DNA of 64,000 nucleotides from Escherichia phage vB_EcoM_I14.1. The stretch is from sequence record PP892526.1. One strand, 5' to 3'. Of this stretch, positions 3,809-40,674 are shown piece by piece (the first letter of the stretch is position 1; each line of letters opens with the position of its first letter). The notes beneath the pieces were generated by a model. It was not told where the DNA came from. It did no database searches and saw only the letters and a list, made by a program, of their open reading frames with translations. The translations under genes and the position numbers were made by a program.

Positions 3809-4390
3809 TCAAGAGTATTTTTTAGGCAGTAATGCACTGCGCTTGTTACTCTCTTCACTCAATAGTGCGATAAATTCATCACCTTTCCCTTTCCACGGAC
3901 TGAATGTAGGGATGTGCTCTCGGATAGCCTCAATCACTGTTTTCAGGGCGTTGTTCTTTAACCACCAATCAGACACTGCCGAAGCTACAATGTAGTAAGC
4001 ACCATCATCTGTGAAGATTGGCTCAGAGATACATGGTGAAATCATAGTGGTAATGATAGAACCATTATTCATGTAGTATGTTCTTTTTTCAACCTTGTCA
4101 AGCAGTTTATGAAGGTCTGCAAAGAGACTTACCACCTCTTTATGGTCAATATCTTTTTCAAGATTTGCTCTATATTTTAATAGTGCAGCATCAACCTCTT
4201 TATCATTGAATTTGAAGTATTGGACTTCTTCATTCACACATACACTGATGTTGTTGGTGTTTATCGTCAATTTGCACAGTTTGACTGGAGAGTTAATGCT
4301 GGTCTGAAAAAGTGCTACACAGCCTTCTACATTCCCGAAATGTTTGACTAATGTAACTTCTGGTTGGATGTGCTCATGTTCTTCTGACAT
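3809..4390 (-). CDS. hypothetical protein
   Basis: 193-aa ORF. Confidence 0.6.
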   Translation of the reverse strand: MSEEHEHIQPEVTLVKHFGNVEGCVALFQTSINSPVKLCKLTINTNNISVCVNEEVQYFKFNDKEVDAALLKYRANLEKDIDHKEVVSLFADLHKLLDKVEKRTYYMNNGSIITTMISPCISEPIFTDDGAYYIVASAVSDWWLKNNALKTVIEAIREHIPTFSPWKGKGDEFIALLSEESNKRSALLPKKYS

Positions 4391-4737
4391 TATAGTTTCC
4401 TCATTAAATACTTTTTAAGTTGTGTGTTAGGTTTCTCAAAAACTTCTATAGAAGATATCTTGACAGATTCACCACGCATACCAGTGTGTTTGAAAATATA
4501 GTACTCCAACATACCTATGTATTTTGCTGGTAAGTCATACTTGACGTACACTGTTACAGAATCTTCAAATTCAACAACCTTTGTACCATCTTTGTAGTTA
4601 AACTCTTTAGGATGGTTGTAATTGTCGATGTCGTACATTAAAAAGAGTCTTTTCCGTTGCATGTCAAGCTTATTGGTTAAAGACTCTTTGATATCTGAGA
4701 AGTTTTTGTACACTGTGACATGGAGCTTACTCATCAT
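4390..4737 (-). CDS. hypothetical protein
   Basis: 115-aa ORF, start/stop coupled to neighbours. Confidence 0.6.
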   Translation of the reverse strand: MMSKLHVTVYKNFSDIKESLTNKLDMQRKRLFLMYDIDNYNHPKEFNYKDGTKVVEFEDSVTVYVKYDLPAKYIGMLEYYIFKHTGMRGESVKISSIEVFEKPNTQLKKYLMRKL

Positions 4738-5020
4738 TAAACTCTCTGACGAAGAAATAGTTGACTTTATTATTACCTACCATAAGGTCAAAGCAGGTAT
4801 TCTCAAAAGGTTTGTTGTAGGCATCATATGAAGTGTACGTATCAGCTACTTGTTTAGTATTGAGCTTTTTACTTGATGGATTTAAGAGGCCACCATACAG
4901 TTTCTTGATAGCCTCTTCTACAACAGACCAGATAATTTCGTCGGTAATTTCTTCGTACAGGTCAAGTTCACGCTCTAGTGAGAAGTCACAAATAGGGAAG
5001 ATAACCTGTACTTTGCTCAT
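4727..5020 (-). CDS. hypothetical protein
   Basis: 97-aa ORF. Confidence 0.55.
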   Translation of the reverse strand: MSKVQVIFPICDFSLERELDLYEEITDEIIWSVVEEAIKKLYGGLLNPSSKKLNTKQVADTYTSYDAYNKPFENTCFDLMVGNNKVNYFFVREFNDE

Positions 5021-5415
5021 TAACGAATAACCTGTGTGACTTGAATTGCTTCAGTTACGGACAAATCACCAACTTTCTCTTCTTTGATGAAAGTAAAGGT
5101 GAGTTCAACAGGTTCTTGCTCTTCTTGCTCAACTGGAATACCGTTAAGCTCATCAAAGATTGATTGGGTAGTCCAGTCTTCTCCACCATCTGGATAATGG
5201 ATGGCATAAAGAGGAAACTCTAAATTATACCAAGCAAAAACAGGACAACCATCTGCATCATCTCGGCATCTGTGGAGGTACGTATTTGTACCTTCAAAAT
5301 GCAAATGAAGATTGCCATTCTTCTCAAATAGAAGAGCATCTCGCAGGTCTAGTTCCTCATTTTCGCTGTAACGACTGACATCAACTTTAACGTGGATATG
5401 ACTGTTATTATTCAT
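5020..5415 (-). CDS. hypothetical protein
   Basis: 131-aa ORF. Confidence 0.6.
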   Translation of the reverse strand: MNNNSHIHVKVDVSRYSENEELDLRDALLFEKNGNLHLHFEGTNTYLHRCRDDADGCPVFAWYNLEFPLYAIHYPDGGEDWTTQSIFDELNGIPVEQEEQEPVELTFTFIKEEKVGDLSVTEAIQVTQVIR

Positions 5416-5806
5416 AAAAACCTCTCTCTGCTTGTTCGATTTTTGCTCTTAAAGTTTCGCAATGCTGTAAATGGTAGTTAGCTTCTTGTTCATGTGTTGC
5501 TAACTGCCTTTCAAGAACAGTTTTATAGTAACCTGCAAGTTGCTCTTTTGTCAATGGGTGCTCTGAAATAATATCAAGTCCACTTTCACCAAGAGGATTG
5601 AATTGTCCATGCTCATTGACATTGTAAGTCTCAAACTTGAACATACCATTGTTCACAGACTCAATAGGTGACAGTTCAACAAGCTCTACAGTAAACCGTG
5701 TATACACCTTGTCGCCTCTTGAAACTACATTGTTTCCGACAATGCGTACAAGCGAACCATTACGAGTATACTTAAAAGTCCCAAAGTCACTGGCCCAAAG
5801 CTTCAT
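5408..5806 (-). CDS. hypothetical protein
   Basis: 132-aa ORF. Confidence 0.6.
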   Translation of the reverse strand: MKLWASDFGTFKYTRNGSLVRIVGNNVVSRGDKVYTRFTVELVELSPIESVNNGMFKFETYNVNEHGQFNPLGESGLDIISEHPLTKEQLAGYYKTVLERQLATHEQEANYHLQHCETLRAKIEQAERGFYE

Positions 5807-5820
5807 AGTTTTCTCCTTAG

Positions 5821-5847
5821 AAAATAAAAAAGGCTCCCGAAGGAGCC
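5821..5847 (-). terminator. rho-independent terminator after endolysin gene
   Basis: GGCTCC-ttcg-GGAGCC hairpin plus T-run on minus strand. Confidence 0.75.
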
Positions 5848-5857
5848 TATGAAGATA

Positions 5858-6322
5858 TTACTTTGGATATATACTGTCAAGATAAATGTCAGCTTCCATT
5901 CTACGTCTGTTTTTCAAGCCGTTTGAAGTGACCTTCTTACCTTTGACTGTAATCTTGTTCCACCACTGCATAGCTTCTGCACAACCTACCTTATTACCAG
6001 CATTGTGGCGCTTGATAAATGTAGAATCCTGCATAGCTGTGATACCGATGTTGTATGTTTCACTTACAAGTGCATCGAACTCATTCTGAGAAGTTGTAAC
6101 CTTGATAGCTTTGTTCACTGCTGCAACAAACTTTTCAACATCTGCGAGAAGATACTGTTCAGCTTGTTCAGCCGTGATTTTCATACCCATCTTAACAGGT
6201 TTACCAGAAATACGGATTGTACCATACCCAATTGTTGGGATTCCGGCAGAGTCTTCGTAAGCCTCTAACTTCAGACCTTCAAAGAACTTAATAGCCTCTA
6301 AACCTTTTCTTGAGAGTTGCAT
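5858..6322 (-). CDS. endolysin, T4-type lysozyme (glycoside hydrolase family 24)
   Basis: N-terminal motif EGLKLEAYEDSAGIPTIGYGT (catalytic Glu/Asp/Thr pattern of phage lysozymes), 154 aa. Confidence 0.85.
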   Translation of the reverse strand: MQLSRKGLEAIKFFEGLKLEAYEDSAGIPTIGYGTIRISGKPVKMGMKITAEQAEQYLLADVEKFVAAVNKAIKVTTSQNEFDALVSETYNIGITAMQDSTFIKRHNAGNKVGCAEAMQWWNKITVKGKKVTSNGLKNRRRMEADIYLDSIYPK

Positions 6323-15610: not shown

Positions 15611-16345
15611 ATGAAAGAGATGACAGAACAAGGTAAGGAGATTTTTAATCTCTTAAAAACCGGTAGAGGGTTTTCTAATCCCCTTATTACTGGTGCAGCA
15701 GTTCTCGGTGGAACAGTAGCTGCCTCTACATCACTTGTAAGCTCTATTAGCTCTGTAACAGACCCTACAATAAAGGATAAGCTTATTGCTGCTGGACTTA
15801 CAACAGTTCTGCTTAATAGCTTTACAACGAGTCTGACAAGCACTACATCAACCACTAAGACACTGACAGATTACGGTCAAAAGTCCATTGATGAGTTTTC
15901 ATCACGTATGCAGGTAGCAAAAGGCTACTCTAATGTTATGGGTGCAGCAGGGGAACAAGTTGGTTGTACACCATTTAGTGGTATTATGGGCGTTGCTACA
16001 GAATATGGTCAAAAAGCTATTGACACAATTAACAGTACACTAGACGGTGTTAATGATGTATTAAGTGACTTACAAGATGCTATTGATAAAGGTCTTGATA
16101 CTATTTCTGATTTAGCTAACCAAGCTGTTAGCAAGATTAATGAAGGTATCTCGAAGATTACAGCTTATGCAGATGAAGTTGTGCAGATGATTGAAGAAGA
16201 AGCTGCCCTTATTGCAGAGTACCTTAAAACGAATATCAATGGGTTCTTAGCAGGTATCTTACCAGACTGGTTTGATGATGCTTGTAAAACTGGTGTAATT
16301 GACACTATTGCAACACCAGAAATGAAGAACGCATTACAGAAATAA
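15611..16345 (+). CDS. hypothetical Ser/Thr-rich protein
   Basis: ORF track start 15548 lies inside tRNA-Phe; ATG at 15611 with AAGGTG RBS. Confidence 0.6.
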   Translation: MKEMTEQGKEIFNLLKTGRGFSNPLITGAAVLGGTVAASTSLVSSISSVTDPTIKDKLIAAGLTTVLLNSFTTSLTSTTSTTKTLTDYGQKSIDEFSSRMQVAKGYSNVMGAAGEQVGCTPFSGIMGVATEYGQKAIDTINSTLDGVNDVLSDLQDAIDKGLDTISDLANQAVSKINEGISKITAYADEVVQMIEEEAALIAEYLKTNINGFLAGILPDWFDDACKTGVIDTIATPEMKNALQK

Positions 16346-16346
16346 T

Positions 16347-16439
16347 GGAAGATTAACCCTAAAAGGTAAGGGAGCAGTTTGCTAAACTGCCAGTAGCTGA
16401 GAAATCGGTGTACCAGTTCAAGTCTGGTATCTTCCTCCA
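16347..16439 (+). tRNA. tRNA-Ser(GCT), long variable arm
   Basis: Acceptor GGAAGAT/ATCTTCC, anticodon stem GCAGT/ACTGC, loop TTGCTAA, CCA. Confidence 0.75.
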
Positions 16440-16443
16440 ATTT

Positions 16444-16519
16444 GAATCCGTGACAGAAATGGCTATGTGCCTGTCTGCAAAACAGGTTTATAAGGGTTCG
16501 AGTCCCTTCGGATTCTCCA
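16444..16519 (+). tRNA. tRNA-Cys(GCA)
   Basis: Anticodon stem CCTGT/ACAGG, loop CTGCAAA, T-arm AAGGGttcgagtCCCTT, CCA. Confidence 0.7.
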
Positions 16520-28221: not shown

Positions 28222-33605
<5,384 letters not shown>

Positions 33606-35077: not shown

Positions 35078-35932
35078 ATGTTTGAAAAGATTGATAGTGT
35101 TTATTACAAAACACTTGATGAAAGGACTGTAACACAGTTTAAAGATAAATTTATCTATACAAGTATCTTGAAAGCAATCACTGATGAGTTACAAACTCTA
35201 GAGGATGTTTGCTGGCAGATGCACACAGAGAGAAATATCAGGACGTCAGTAGGACAACAACTGGATAATATTGGCTCACTGATTAAAGTTCCTAGACCTT
35301 TAGGTGCAGATGATGAAACATATAGAGCTATGCTTTATATCCAAATCTTCCTAAGACGCTCTGACACCACCCCAACATTCTTGCAAAAAGCAATTATGAC
35401 ACTATATGGTGCAACTTTCTCTCAGATTTTTGAGCATATTACTCCTAAGACTGGTGGTATCGTTATCCGTATCAACACTAGGAAAAGCGTTCTAGATGCT
35501 GCATATACACTGTCAAAGATTTCTGCAACAACTACTGGCTCCGCTGTTATCTTAAGAGATGTTACTTTAAAAGGAACTGCTTGGACTCCTGTAGAGGTTG
35601 CTGATTCATCACTTGCTATTGTTGATGATAAAGAGAACTGGTTTGTAACTGACGCTAACAGAGGTCTTGTCACAAATAACACTGGTGGCTCTCTGGAGTC
35701 CAACCTAGTAGGGAGCCTTGCAGATGCTGGTGTTATTGATGGTTACTTTAAGGTTGACAGAACAGCAAACTCACAGAGTGATGATTATATGACTGTAGAT
35801 AGGTCTAATAACAGTGGATATTTCATCGTTGGTAAAGAAGCTATCGCAGGTGGTGCATACGGAATCATGGCTGAGGTTGCACAAATTGTCAAAGGCAGAA
35901 AAGATAAATCACAACAAGAAGGAAATTCTTAA
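35078..35932 (+). CDS. putative baseplate/tail fibre attachment protein
   Basis: 284 aa, position. Confidence 0.45.
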
Positions 35933-36234
35933 TGGCAGTTTTAAATTGGTCTACAAATGAAGTAGATACTGATGGTAACCAGTTAAAAGTTTTACCACCA
36001 CCGGAAGTTCAAGAGACAGGTCTTTTAAAGGGTGAACCTATGGGTAGACAGTGGTTCAACTATATTATCAACTACCTGCTTAATAAAGTAAACGGCACTG
36101 TTGGTGAAGTTCGCTCATATGCAACTGAGCAACCAGATTTAGTGGCTAATGGCTGGAATCTGATTAAGTCTGAGACAGGGACTGCATCAACAAGTACAAG
36201 AAACCTTTACACATATGAATATGTAGGAGCTTAA
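35932..36234 (+). CDS. hypothetical protein
   Basis: 100 aa. Confidence 0.5.
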
Positions 36235-36236
36235 TA

Positions 36237-37412
36237 ATGGCAGTAGGTGAAATTCAAATTAGTGCCTTGCCACAAGCGGCCTTACCAGTTGATTTAAGTG
36301 ATATCTTCCATCTCAAGCAAGGTGTTGAGGATAAAAGATGTACGCTTGAACAGTTGTTAGCACCTCACGCATCTCTGAGGAATAACCCTCATGGTGTAAC
36401 TAAATCACAAGTTGGTCTTGATAATGTTATTAACTCTCTTCAATTAGTTGCAGCTAATAACTTGTCAGATATTGTAAGTGTTGCTGAGGCAAGAGCAAAT
36501 CTACAAATTATGTCGTCAGAGGAAGTGAATAACTTAATTCAGCAACATATTGACGACAAAAGTAACCCACACAATACAACGAAAGCACAGGTTGGTTTAA
36601 GTAATGTTCAGAACTGGACAACATCTAATCTGTACAATGAAGATGCTGATAAGTATGCTACCGCGAAAGCAGTTAATAATTTATATAAAGCTATCCAAGC
36701 GTCATATCCAGTAGGGACTATTCATCTATCTGTTAACTCTGCTAACCCATCCACTTACTTGCTTTGTGGAGGTACTTGGGAGTTAGTTTCTAAAGGTAGA
36801 GCATTAGTTGGTTATGATACAGATTCTAGACCTGTTGGTTCAACGTTTGGTTCTCAGACTGTAGCATTAACAAATAATAATTTACCAGCACATACTCACT
36901 CTATCTATCTAACAGGTGGTGGTCATACACACTCTGCAAGTGTATCTATCTCTAGTTTTGATTATGGTTCAAAAAGTACATCAACTTTTGATTACGGTAC
37001 AAAAACGACTAATAGTGCTGGTGCTCACACTCACACGTTTAGTGGCACAACAAGTAATGCTGGTAACCACAACCATAGAGTCCCTATGAGGGGTAATGAT
37101 AGGGGTGGCACAAACGCTATTACTGCATCTGCTGATGCTGGTGTTGGTAATGCTATGTATACTGATTTAGCTGGTGCTCACACCCATAGCTTCTCAGGTA
37201 CAACTGCATCATCTGGTGCTCATAGCCATACTGTCGCAATTGGTGCTCACAGCCACACTGTTAATATTGGTTCGCACAGTCATACAGGCACTGTTACTGT
37301 TTCTAGCTCTGAGCATACACACTCAGGGACATCTGGTTCTGTTGGTGGTGGTCAAGCTTTCAGTGTTGAGCAGCCATCTTTTGTAGTGTATGTGTGGCAG
37401 AGAACAGCTTAA
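36237..37412 (+). CDS. tail fibre protein with His-rich HxH repeat tip
   Basis: Repeats AHTHS, GHTHSAS, GAHTHTFSGTTS, GNHNHR, GAHSHTV x2; C-terminus shared with next gene. Confidence 0.75.
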   Translation: MAVGEIQISALPQAALPVDLSDIFHLKQGVEDKRCTLEQLLAPHASLRNNPHGVTKSQVGLDNVINSLQLVAANNLSDIVSVAEARANLQIMSSEEVNNLIQQHIDDKSNPHNTTKAQVGLSNVQNWTTSNLYNEDADKYATAKAVNNLYKAIQASYPVGTIHLSVNSANPSTYLLCGGTWELVSKGRALVGYDTDSRPVGSTFGSQTVALTNNNLPAHTHSIYLTGGGHTHSASVSISSFDYGSKSTSTFDYGTKTTNSAGAHTHTFSGTTSNAGNHNHRVPMRGNDRGGTNAITASADAGVGNAMYTDLAGAHTHSFSGTTASSGAHSHTVAIGAHSHTVNIGSHSHTGTVTVSSSEHTHSGTSGSVGGGQAFSVEQPSFVVYVWQRTA

Positions 37413-37422
37413 TTTCTTTACA

Positions 37423-37442
37423 GGGGCTATAAAGCCCCTTTT
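37423..37442 (+). terminator. intrinsic terminator between the two fibre genes
   Basis: GGGGCT-ataa-AGCCCC TTTT. Confidence 0.65.
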
Positions 37443-37458
37443 AAGAGGAAAATTCATA

Positions 37459-39996
37459 ATGGCAGATTACAAATTGAGTCAGTTAAACTCAATCGACACA
37501 ATTCGTTCAGAAGACCTATTGCACATCAGAGTTAAGAAAAGACCTAAAATGTTGGGTGACGAAGACCGTAGAATGACCTATCAAGACTTCTTAGCATCTT
37601 TTAAACTTGAAAGATTTGTTCAGATTGCTGGTAGTACTATGACAGGTGACTTAGGGATTGTTAAGTTACTTTATGGTGGTAAGGCAGTATTTGACCCAAC
37701 AGGCTCTTCTGAGGTTACTATTGGGGATATTTTAAAGACTTTTAAAATTAATTCAAATGGGCTTAAACTCACTATTGCAGATGCCACAAGGTCGGCAACT
37801 GTTTATCATACTTTGAACAAACCAAGCCCTAATGAACTTGGCATGAGAACTAATGAAGAGAATGATGCAAGATATGCAAGGCTTGCTGTTACAAACACAT
37901 TCTCTGGAACTCAGAACATTCAAGGTGATGCTAACTTACTTCGCCTTAGAAACCGAAATGCAAACAATGCACAATACATTGAAGGTGTAAACCTAGATGG
38001 TTCAGCTAGATGGTGGGTTGGTATTGGTAGCAATGGTTCTGACGAAGTAAAACTGTACAATAACAAATACAACTCAGTCTTGACTGTTGCAAGTAATATC
38101 TCTGTTAATAAATCTTTAGCAATCACTGGACAAGTTCAACCTTCAGATTTCTCTAACTTAGATGCTAGATACTTCACTCAGACAGTTGCTAATCAGAGAT
38201 TTGCACAGTTAGCTGGCAATAATACTTTTACAGGTGCTAACACTTTCACTAGCCTTGTTGTTAAGAAGAATGCTAATGCTATTACTTTGCAGAATACTGA
38301 TACAAGTACAGCACTTTACATTCTCGGTAAGAAGTCTGATGGAACAAATAAATGGTATGTTGGTACAGATTCTGACGAGACACGTCTGAACATTTATAAC
38401 TACCTTACAGGTTCACAGGTTTCACTAGGTACTACTATTGGTATCAATAAGACTGTGCAAATCACTGGACAAGTTCAACCTTCGGATTGGGCTAATATCG
38501 ATTCTAGATATATTCCGGCAGCAACATTAAGTACGATTGCAAGAACTAATGCTGCTAATACATTCTCTGCACAACAGGTTATCAACGCTGATGGTGAAGC
38601 TCTTGCGTTAAAAGCAAAAACTGCAACGTCATTATTTATTAGAGGTAAGGATGTTGATGGAACCAGCAAGTGGTATGTTGGTAATGGTGATGCCAGTGAT
38701 ATCTTAAACCTGTATAACTACAAGACAGGTAAAGGGCTTAACATTGGTTCAGTATTTGAAATGAATGCAACTTTAGCAATCACTGGACAAGTTCAACCTT
38801 CTGATTGGGCTAATATTGATGCAAGATACTTTACGCAAAGTGCTAGTGATGGTAGATACCTGAGAGTCAGAAGTACTGGCTTCAATAATGGAAACGTTGA
38901 AAAGTGGGCTAAAATTGCTACTGTCGTTATGCCGCAATCCGCATCTACTGCGGTGATTGAAGTGTTTGGTGGGTCTGGTTTTAATGTTAACGCACCACAC
39001 CAAGCAGGTAAGTGTGAGATTATTTTACGAACATCAAACAATAACCCAAAGGGTTTAAATGTTGTAGCTTGGAGAACCGCAGAGAATACCATTGTCACAG
39101 ATATTGGTTATGTTAACACATCTGGCGACACTTATGATATTTACTGTAGGGTCGGTACGTACCAAAATGGTACAACATCAAGAGTTCAATCTTCTAGCAA
39201 TGCAAGTGTGCAGCTATTTGAAGTCCCACAAACGTTTGATGATGCCCCACAAGGTATTGTGAAGGGTACAATTGCAAAATACTACACAAGTTTGCAAAAG
39301 CCAACCCCTTCAGATATCGGTGCATATACTAAAGCTGAAACTGACCAGAAAATTGCAGAAGCAATCAGTGACTCTACAGACCTGAATAAAATCTATCCAG
39401 TCGGTATTGTGACGTGGTTTAACAGTAATGTTAACCCTAATACAGCACTTCCTGGTCTAACTTGGACGTACCTGAACAATGGTGTTGGCAGAACTATTAG
39501 AATTGCAGCAGCAAATGGCTCAGATGTTGCTACAACTGGTGGTTCAGACTCTGTAACGTTATCTGTTGGTAACTTACCTTCACACACGCATAGTTTCTCT
39601 GCTACCACTTCATCATTTGATTATGGTACTAAGACTTCTAGCACAACTGGTAACCATAACCACAACAGGGGGACTATGGAGATTACTGGTACAGTAGGTT
39701 ACTTCAGAAGTGATTCTAGCAGCTTCTACACAGCAAGTGGTGCATTCACACTTGGTAGTTCAACTGCTTCTAAAGGTTTTACTGGTTCTAACTTCACTTA
39801 TGGTATCCCTGCTAACTTCAATGCGTCAAGAACTTGGTCTGGTGTAACGAATACAACAGGTAACCACAGCCACACTGTTGGTATTGGTGCTCACAGCCAC
39901 ACAGTTAGCGGTAACACAGGTGGTACTGGTTCTGGTTCAGCATTTAGTGTTACTAACCAGTTCTACAAGTTAATGGCTTGGGTAAGAACTGCTTAA
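37459..39996 (+). CDS. long tail fibre protein with three internal ~110-aa repeats and HxH tip
   Basis: ATG 37459 with AAGAGGAAA RBS (track start 37390 overlaps previous gene); triplicated ITGQVQPSD(F/W)(S/A)N(L/I)D(A/S)RY; C-terminal HTHSFS, GNHNHN, GNHSHTVGIGAHSHTV. Confidence 0.8.
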   Translation: MADYKLSQLNSIDTIRSEDLLHIRVKKRPKMLGDEDRRMTYQDFLASFKLERFVQIAGSTMTGDLGIVKLLYGGKAVFDPTGSSEVTIGDILKTFKINSNGLKLTIADATRSATVYHTLNKPSPNELGMRTNEENDARYARLAVTNTFSGTQNIQGDANLLRLRNRNANNAQYIEGVNLDGSARWWVGIGSNGSDEVKLYNNKYNSVLTVASNISVNKSLAITGQVQPSDFSNLDARYFTQTVANQRFAQLAGNNTFTGANTFTSLVVKKNANAITLQNTDTSTALYILGKKSDGTNKWYVGTDSDETRLNIYNYLTGSQVSLGTTIGINKTVQITGQVQPSDWANIDSRYIPAATLSTIARTNAANTFSAQQVINADGEALALKAKTATSLFIRGKDVDGTSKWYVGNGDASDILNLYNYKTGKGLNIGSVFEMNATLAITGQVQPSDWANIDARYFTQSASDGRYLRVRSTGFNNGNVEKWAKIATVVMPQSASTAVIEVFGGSGFNVNAPHQAGKCEIILRTSNNNPKGLNVVAWRTAENTIVTDIGYVNTSGDTYDIYCRVGTYQNGTTSRVQSSSNASVQLFEVPQTFDDAPQGIVKGTIAKYYTSLQKPTPSDIGAYTKAETDQKIAEAISDSTDLNKIYPVGIVTWFNSNVNPNTALPGLTWTYLNNGVGRTIRIAAANGSDVATTGGSDSVTLSVGNLPSHTHSFSATTSSFDYGTKTSSTTGNHNHNRGTMEITGTVGYFRSDSSSFYTASGAFTLGSSTASKGFTGSNFTYGIPANFNASRTWSGVTNTTGNHSHTVGIGAHSHTVSGNTGGTGSGSAFSVTNQFYKLMAWVRTA

Positions 39997-40075: not shown

Positions 40076-40273
40076 ATGCCTACAATCCTAGCAATTCTTC
40101 TAAAAAATCTAGGTAGCTTCTTCTGGAAACTCATTTTATCCCTTCTAAGTGAATACATGATTGAGAAAGTGTTCTTTAGGCTTGCAAGATACCTTGCGAG
40201 TAAAACAGACACACCTATTGATGATGAGTTCGTAGATAACTTAGAAAAAGCTTTTAAGGGGGAAAATAAATGA
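40076..40273 (+). CDS. small membrane protein, holin-like candidate
   Basis: 65 aa, N-terminal hydrophobic helix, charged C-terminus. Confidence 0.45.
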   Translation: MPTILAILLKNLGSFFWKLILSLLSEYMIEKVFFRLARYLASKTDTPIDDEFVDNLEKAFKGENK

Positions 40274-40641
40274 AGTGGCTAGAGGAAGCTTTTAAAAATA
40301 ATATTGGTGCAATTGTAGTTGGTATTTTTAGTGTTATTGGGATGTATACCACCATGCAAGTTTCAAGTGGTAAACAAGAAGTGTCTGTCACAACAAAGTT
40401 ACAGCAGCTAGATAACTATTCCAAAAGTAATTATTCAGCTATTCGTGATTTACAGTCTGACATGAGATTGATTCAGCTAGGGATGGAGAACCAGAAAGTT
40501 CAGTTAGAGAATGTTAAGGGTGAGAATGCAAAACTTACCAAAACTCTTGATAAGTTCTCTGATAGTGTGAACAATCTGGCTCAGTCAGTATCAGCCTTGC
40601 AAGCTATTACTGAAAAGAACACAAAGAATACTGAAAAGTAA
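40270..40641 (+). CDS. membrane-anchored coiled-coil protein (spanin- or holin-associated candidate)
   Basis: 123 aa, N-terminal TM helix IGAIVVGIFSVIGMY then coiled coil. Confidence 0.45.
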   Translation: MKWLEEAFKNNIGAIVVGIFSVIGMYTTMQVSSGKQEVSVTTKLQQLDNYSKSNYSAIRDLQSDMRLIQLGMENQKVQLENVKGENAKLTKTLDKFSDSVNNLAQSVSALQAITEKNTKNTEK

Positions 40642-40648
40642 AGTTTAA

Positions 40649-40674
40649 GGCTCCTTTTTACGGGAGCCTTTTTT
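40649..40674. terminator. bidirectional terminator between convergent operons
   Basis: GGCTCC-tttttacg-GGAGCC flanked by T/A runs on both sides. Confidence 0.75.

Follow-up and report, generated by a model that had tools for sequence, protein, structure and literature searches.

Two side-fiber genes of a Felix O1-like Escherichia phage: tips of the T4 gp37 type and the repeat units of the long fiber

Positions 36237–39996 of a stretch of Escherichia phage vB_EcoM_I14.1 (sequence record PP892526.1) very probably encode the two side fibers, one short (STF) and one long (LTF), of a Felix O1-like myovirus, each fiber ending in a tip of the kind found in T4 gp37. The window analyzed is the whole of that stretch, 64,000 nucleotides in length, and all positions are counted from its first letter. 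The fiber pair consists of known, annotated genes, and the architecture for the genus has already been published from cryo-electron microscopy (cryo-EM) of the phages Bas63 and Sf14. What is added here is a residue-level map of this allele, with nine predicted metal layers in the short fiber and four in the long one, and a proposal about how the repeat units in the shaft of the long fiber vary. The two genes are adjacent on the + strand in the list of open reading frames (ORFs):

36237..37412, + strand: STF, the short side-fiber gene, 391 aa, the same as a coding sequence of vB_EcoM_D4 and, judging by synteny, homologous to Bas63 gp26, wV8 gp82 and the Felix O1 'gp37-like' protein
37459..39996, + strand: LTF, the long side-fiber gene, 845 aa, homologous, judging by synteny, to Bas63 gp27 and wV8 gp83

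The STF protein matches PHROG 2097, 'tail fiber protein', at E=1e-138, and the LTF protein matches PHROG 4277, also 'tail fiber protein', at E=0 with its full length covered. The region is 100% identical in DNA sequence to Escherichia phage vB_EcoM_D4 (PP886228; Felixounavirus) and ~94% identical to wV8, which represents the species Felixounavirus wV8 as listed by the international committee for virus taxonomy (ICTV), and to O157 typing phages. A total of 235 phage records match the fiber region, almost all of them Felixounavirus. In the wV8 annotation, both genes are listed as tail-fiber proteins, and a Rho-independent terminator is marked in the space that separates them.

The assignment of the tips starts from the histidines. 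The STF protein contains 24 His residues and nine HxH motifs, at aa 219, 230, 264, 278, 315, 329, 338, 347, and 360, and the LTF protein contains four HxH motifs, at aa 709, 733, 803, and 812. Neither count is reached in any of 5000 composition-preserving shuffles, where the means are 1.4 for STF and 0.13 for LTF. An earlier reading made from the letters and ORF translations (the sequence-only reading) had proposed that the two genes have a His-rich HxH tip in common and end alike in AFSV..W(Q/V)RTA, and both proposals are borne out by the alignments. The C-terminal modules of the two proteins are homologous yet diverged, with 32% identity over 221 aa (BLASTP, E=4e-17), and the end strand AFSV...W(Q/V)RTA is present at both fiber ends and highly conserved among homologues.

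Comparison with the T4 gp37 tip (PDB 2XGF) ties these modules to a known structure. STF aa 145–362 align with it at E=1.8e-26, with seven out of seven T4 HxH motifs in register, and LTF aa 703–824 align at E=3.8e-7. Three of the LTF motifs are aligned with T4, and the remaining one is common to the collar-proximal site of STF. The motif SSFDYGTK is found in the T4 gp37 tip as well as in these fibers in the same alignments, and the LTF tip is 40–44% identical to the gp37 distal fibers of T-even phages by tblastn. The alignments allow the two tips to be divided as follows:

36669..36890, + strand: STF collar domain, about aa 145–218
36891..37076, + strand: descending half of the STF needle, with HxH at aa 219, 230, 264, and 278 and SSFDYGxK repeats
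37077..37178, + strand: STF head segment, predicted to contact the receptor, aa 281–314, aligning with the T4 gp37 head between the HxH arrays
37179..37409, + strand: ascending half of the STF needle and C-terminal return strand, with HxH at aa 315, 329, 338, 347, and 360 and the end FVVYVWQRTA
39379..39582, + strand: LTF collar domain, about aa 641–708, from the BLASTP alignment to the STF collar
39583..39993, + strand: LTF needle and head, with HxH at aa 709 and 733 (descending), the head at aa ~736–802, HxH at aa 803 and 812 (ascending) and the C terminus ...AFSVTNQFYKLMAWVRTA

In the 2XGF alignment, H230, H264, and H278 of the STF descending half fall on T4 AHSHS, GHTHS, and EHSHY, and H315, H329, H338, and H347 of the ascending half fall on NHSHT, DHSHS, AHTHT, and SHGHT. 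The LTF residues H733, H803, and H812 fall on GHTHS, DHSHS, and AHTHT. The collars point in the same direction: that of STF matches Pfam Gp10_C (E=2.8e-18) and T4 gp10 chains, and that of LTF matches PHROG 4618, 'tail collar fiber protein' (E=1.3e-15), and is 0.95–1.00 identical among 116 homologues.

The genes upstream of the pair place it in the baseplate gene order of Bas63. Immediately before STF lies the following gene:

35932..36234, + strand: LTF-platform protein, 100 aa, matching PDB 9NDY chain S, 'LTF platform protein (gp025)' of Bas63, over its full length (phmmer against the PDB, E=9.9e-59)

In Bas63, the LTF-platform protein is the baseplate attachment point of the long fiber (PMC12609058). 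The next ORF upstream, 35078–35932, matches Bas63 wedge protein 1 (gp024; 9NDY_J) at E=2.5e-157. The two upstream ORFs are homologues of Bas63 gp24 and gp25, the order is therefore gp24–gp25–gp26–gp27, and the fibers are the gp26 and gp27 counterparts. The cryo-EM work on Bas63 describes an STF (gp26) and an LTF (gp27), each with a T4 gp37-like collar, an HxH needle, and a head, and the LTF also has five beta-helix domains with helix-and-turn motifs between them (PMC12609058). Two fiber sets were likewise found in Sf14, a related ounavirus (PMC11821841). The fibers of Felixounavirus (Bas63 gp26/gp27, Sf14 gp52/gp53, wV8 gp82/gp83, and Felix O1 NP_944921/NP_944923) are about equal in length to those described here, and their genes follow wedge protein 1 and the LTF platform in identical order. 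The likeness extends to the layout of the proteins, with an N-terminal anchor, helix-turn motifs, and a collar, HxH needle, and head in both fibers and beta-domain repeats in the LTF only. The allele differs from Bas63 in the number of HxH motifs, with nine in STF and four in LTF here, versus seven and six there, and in that only three of the five LTF shaft domains are recognizable as sequence repeats.

The homologues suggest how the fibers would be built. Each fiber protein would form a homotrimer with its N terminus on the baseplate; in Bas63 the short fiber binds the wedge protein and the long fiber binds the gp25 platform (PMC12609058). At the tip, the collar would lead into a beta needle of six strands, with every chain descending, forming a small distal head, and returning. 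By homology to T4, the inward-facing HxH motifs of the three chains would contribute six His residues per layer around one axial metal, pinning the thin needle. The metal in the T4 gp37 tip is Fe2+ (T4 comparison with 2XGF). In STF, nine such layers are predicted, two more than in T4: the seven of T4 plus a collar-proximal NLPAHTH and a late EHTHS. The LTF would have just four, together with a longer head than that of T4, of about 65 aa. The extra length of the LTF would come from a shaft of beta-structured domains, with conserved QVQPSDxxNxDxRY connectors between them.

The resemblance to the T4 gp37 tip (residues 785–1026 in 2XGF) covers the collar, a predicted interdigitated needle with HxH layers, and a predicted head at what would be the chain reversal. 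The setting is different: T4 gp37 has 1026 aa and makes up the distal quarter of a kinked fiber of four proteins, whereas here a single protein is the entire straight fiber. T4 gp37 requires the chaperones gp38 and gp57A. Among the ORFs adjacent to the fiber genes, which were the ones looked at, there is no gp38-like or fiber-chaperone-like gene, and the ORFs downstream encode small membrane-type proteins.

It is highly improbable that the HxH arrays serve only as a structural motif of beta strands, binding no metal, and that the resemblance to T4 is architectural only. The variation of HxH number between alleles, from 7 to 10 in STF and either 4 or 6 in LTF, would fit such a motif, but all seven of the iron-binding HxH motifs of T4 align residue by residue in STF. 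In addition, H219, H278, H280, H315, H317, H338, H340, H347, and H349 show either no variation or conservation above 90% across 68 STF homologues (H347 and H349 are invariant in all of them, as are W387 and R389), and conservation of paired His residues is hard to account for without ligand binding.

Some observations do weigh against the picture of two T4-type side fibers as drawn above. No deposited structure of these fibers came up, since PDB searches with STF and LTF returned no 9NDY match, and the fiber density in Bas63 was too weak for atomic modeling (PMC12609058). The LTF collar scores 24.6 bits against Gp10_C, which is below the Pfam cut-off of 27. The predicted number of metal sites is an extrapolation, because the HxH counts differ from those in Bas63.

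A single-chain AF2 model of STF has a predicted local distance difference test score (pLDDT) of 68.8 and a predicted template-modeling score of 0.33, and the pLDDT of its head segment is below 50. A Foldseek search of the PDB with this single-chain model gave nothing at E≤1e-3, and its long hairpin drew beta-pore toxins.

The pattern of conservation agrees with the placement of the heads. STF residues 281–320 form a conservation minimum, with an identity of 0.16–0.36 versus 0.8–0.9 elsewhere in 48 homologues, and LTF residues 741–800 are the least conserved part of that tip, at 0.58–0.65 in the 116 homologues. In both fibers, the minimum falls precisely in the interval that separates the descending HxH array from the ascending one, which is the location of the receptor-binding head in T4 gp37. 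Dependence on the core of lipopolysaccharide (LPS) has been reported for felixounaviruses (PMC8594841, PMC11821841), and the variable loops of the distal head likely contact LPS, the receptor class reported for the genus. The LTF tip allele is found at 80% identity or more mainly in phages isolated on O157:H7, Shiga toxin–producing E. coli (STEC) O103, and E. fergusonii; it is 60–70% identical in Shigella flexneri phages and less than 60% identical in Salmonella phages. The range of E. coli, Shigella, and Salmonella strains open to attack by this group of phages, which are used in therapy and diagnostics, is set by the fibers. The segments to swap for engineering would be the head loops, STF aa 281–314 and LTF aa ~736–802, as is already known for the genus.

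Two records assigned to phages of other bacteria, GU169904 (Staphylococcus phage SA1) and MG065664 (Campylobacter phage A132), contain Felixounavirus LTF sequence that is 87–89% identical to the window in DNA, which suggests that the deposits are contaminated or mislabeled.

The shaft of the long fiber carries a set of three repeat units followed by a larger domain:

37876..38172, + strand: repeat unit U1, LTF aa 140–238
38173..38511, + strand: repeat unit U2, LTF aa 239–351
38512..38829, + strand: repeat unit U3, LTF aa 352–457
38830..39378, + strand: fifth, larger shaft domain of LTF, about aa 458–640, with the KPTPSDIGAYTKAETD connector at its end and approximate, predicted limits

The units are ~100–113 aa long and are 45–47% identical to one another as proteins in pairwise comparisons (z=17–21 versus shuffles). 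Pfam PF20744 (gp37_trimer) matches the LTF in three stretches, with 209.7 bits against a cut-off of 21.7 (E=4.8e-63). Every unit terminates in ITGQVQPSDxxNxDxRY, and the ITGQVQPSD cores lie at nucleotides 38122, 38461, and 38779. The triplicated repeat of ~110 aa noticed in the sequence-only reading is thus real and consists of three paralogous units; of the positions it gave, 38122 is exact, and 38459 and 38773 need to be moved to the second and third cores. Its further claim that the repeat DNA is near-identical was overstated, as identity on aligned codons is 58–60% and exact matches are limited to a core of 24–31 nt. Tandem Repeats Finder calls no array of ~330 nt in the LTF, because the units are too diverged, and returns only the 27-nt periodicity of the HxH-coding DNA; a repeat search finds 80-nt stretches at 70–79% identity between units. 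The fifth domain has partial PHROG matches in several tail-fiber families, covering LTF aa 472–625.

The core of 24–31 nt was also considered as a conserved DNA signal or recombination signal. That candidate was rejected because synonymous sites differ in relatives (GGA/GGT, CAA/CAG, and GTT/GTC).

A profile of the units matches the pyramid domain of T7 gp17 (4A0T/4A0U), at about T7 residues 368–436, with E about 1e-6. T7 gp17 has one such domain immediately before the tip, whereas here there are three, which are found in the shaft, far from the tip, with conserved connectors between them.

The way in which the units vary between phages suggests that they move as blocks. Loci compared for unit shuffling include MK965969, MK965970, PP429241, and two 89-kb metagenome scaffolds. 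At 80% identity, the cores of the units can be sorted into at least 34 types, of which most, but not all, are position-specific. The core of the type found in U1 of D4 is at position 1 in D4, wV8, H12, JN01, and Mushroom. Salmonella phage DaR-2019a has it at position 2 (85% aa identity), DaR-2019b (87%) and vB_Si_CECAV_FGS030 (93%) have it at position 3, and the last of these has it at position 1 as well. Identity between close relatives shifts abruptly at unit borders. Compared with wV8, it is 95–100% through U2, 58–70% in U3, and 94% further on; in H12 and JN01, it is 97–99% in U1 and goes down to 54–76% in U2 and U3. The linkers before each unit remain position-specific. Chimeric units are also found, with junctions at an RWW(V/I)G motif. 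In addition, the two 89-kb metagenome scaffolds (ERZ28584719 and ERZ28650236), which could be assembly chimeras, contain intragenic copies of 300 and 281 nt with 99–100% DNA identity.

The occurrence of one unit type at differing positions, together with the intragenic copies at 99–100% identity, suggests that the units are exchanged as cassettes. Under this proposal, to which about an even chance is given, recombination at the motifs NTF, RW(Y/W)VG, and TGQVQPSD would swap cores between phages and between positions and would convert units, with the count staying approximately fixed at three. A simpler account would have the units vary by point mutations only, within beta-structured domains that tolerate them, and mutational tolerance is the first explanation offered by the Bas63 authors (PMC12609058). 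It would suit the finding that, among homologues, conservation is lower in the unit cores than in the connectors, with U3 the most variable unit (core identity 0.41–0.53). It is nevertheless unlikely given the abrupt changes of identity at unit borders in wV8, H12, and JN01, the D4 U1-type core at positions 2 and 3 in the Salmonella phage DaR-2019a and in DaR-2019b and FGS030, the chimeric units joined at RWW(V/I)G, and the copies of 281–300 nt on the two scaffolds.

In T-even phages, Tetart and colleagues (J Mol Biol, 1996 and 1998) reportedly described recombination at a 'His-box' in gene 37. The exchange of cassettes proposed here is similar in that short conserved motifs, in this case NTF, RW(Y/W)VG, and TGQVQPSD, flank variable fiber segments and appear to be the crossover points. 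It differs in what is exchanged: the T-even segments are in the adhesin tip, whereas here they are cassettes of the shaft domains, which also move between repeat positions.

The study of Bas63 called the variability of beta-helix repeats 2–5 'unexpected' and offered three explanations, none of which is recombination (PMC12609058). Cassette exchange, if true, would explain this variability. It would also mean that the surface of the shaft is under selection, perhaps for secondary glycan binding or for escape from a defense system or from antibody-like recognition, and not simple mutational tolerance. If confirmed, the shaft would be a second, unrecognized determinant of host interaction or immune evasion. 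No account of unit shuffling in these fibers was found in the literature, the coverage of which was incomplete, making this weak evidence of novelty.

A change in the number of units is rare. A hidden Markov model of the units, built for this work and applied to the LTF of this phage and to the 120 best LTF homologue clusters, finds three units in this LTF and in 119 of the clusters and two units in one. The exception is P0072, a protein of 740 aa from a 23.3-kb ENA contig (ERZ1505402 NODE_674, 4001–6223). LTF proteins come in length classes of 785–788, 812, and 837–858 aa, all of which keep three units and differ outside them. The Bas63 study also found that repeat number is not variable among ICTV-listed species (PMC12609058).

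These counts bear on the possibility that the triplicated repeat is mainly a hotspot of unequal crossing-over that alters the length of the fiber. The P0072 cluster has exactly one unit fewer, and the three units of this phage have a short core of identical DNA in common. The hotspot is distinctly unlikely all the same: three units are retained in nearly all of the clusters, the other length classes vary elsewhere in the protein, the units here are far from identical in DNA, and the ICTV-listed species surveyed show no variation. The sequence-only reading had pointed to the repeats as a likely site of recombination or length variation. The first part fits the exchange of unit cores between alleles and positions, and the second does not fit the clusters, where three units are so generally kept that repeat-driven length variation must be rare.

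The second unit of P0072 is of a divergent type and is not a simple fusion of U2 and U3 of the D4 allele.

The start of the LTF gene needs a correction that concerns the space between the two genes. The automatic ORF call puts it at ATG 37390, which adds 23 codons, overlaps the 3' end of STF, and crosses a hairpin. A Shine–Dalgarno sequence, AAGAGGA, is present at 37443–37449 upstream of ATG 37459, and the equivalent codon is the annotated start in relatives. For these reasons, the true start is 37459, not 37390. The hairpin lies in the intergenic space that remains:

37422..37442, + strand: hairpin AGGGGCT-ATAA-AGCCCCT followed by TTTT, the first T of which closes the stem; terminator-like, with a weak U-tract

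This hairpin is a real, conserved structure. Its 7-bp G+C-rich stem and loop (37422–37439) have a folding energy of −16.1 kcal/mol (z=−3.4). In five E. coli–phage loci, the stem is invariant and the loop is ATAA, TTGT, or TTAT, and Salmonella phage Mushroom keeps a shifted hairpin. A scan for terminators does not call it, as the U-tract of 4 nt fails the rule of the scan. The terminator that the sequence-only reading had placed between the genes is therefore upheld as a stable and conserved hairpin, for which a role in termination is plausible, and not as a consensus terminator.

A stronger version, in which the hairpin works efficiently as an intrinsic terminator and STF and LTF have separate transcripts as a result, is doubtful. 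The stable G+C-rich stem, its conserved position, and its invariant sequence beside a variable loop are what would be expected of it, and the wV8 annotation makes the same call. However, only four T residues follow the stem, the first of them paired, and no promoter-like site is present between the hairpin and the LTF start, 17 nt downstream. Both fibers are also needed in equal copy number, with six trimers of each in Bas63 (PMC12609058). An outer 5-bp helix, UUCUU/AAGAG (within 37414–37447), would sequester part of the LTF Shine–Dalgarno sequence, and this pairing points instead to a function in translation or in the stability of the mRNA. The outer helix hints at translational control or coupling rather than simple termination, and the hairpin would probably attenuate transcription or stabilize the mRNA.

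Other features of the window were noted in passing. Downstream of LTF are two small ORFs, 40076–40273 (65 aa, hydrophobic) and 40270–40641 (123 aa). A homologue of the 65-aa ORF carries Pfam PF26925 Phage_PM2_Gpl, and the 123-aa ORF is annotated as 'holin' in phage JN01. After both of them, the terminator scan calls a strong hairpin of terminator type, with an extended run of T residues, at 40647–40670. A cluster of 24 tRNA genes is located on the + strand at 10866–16519. The baseplate spike protein (207 aa, 32564–33187) has an HxH-type motif near its C terminus, which recalls the iron-loaded tips of the P2 and phi92 spikes; a ring of His residues is mentioned for the needle protein of Sf14 (PMC11821841).

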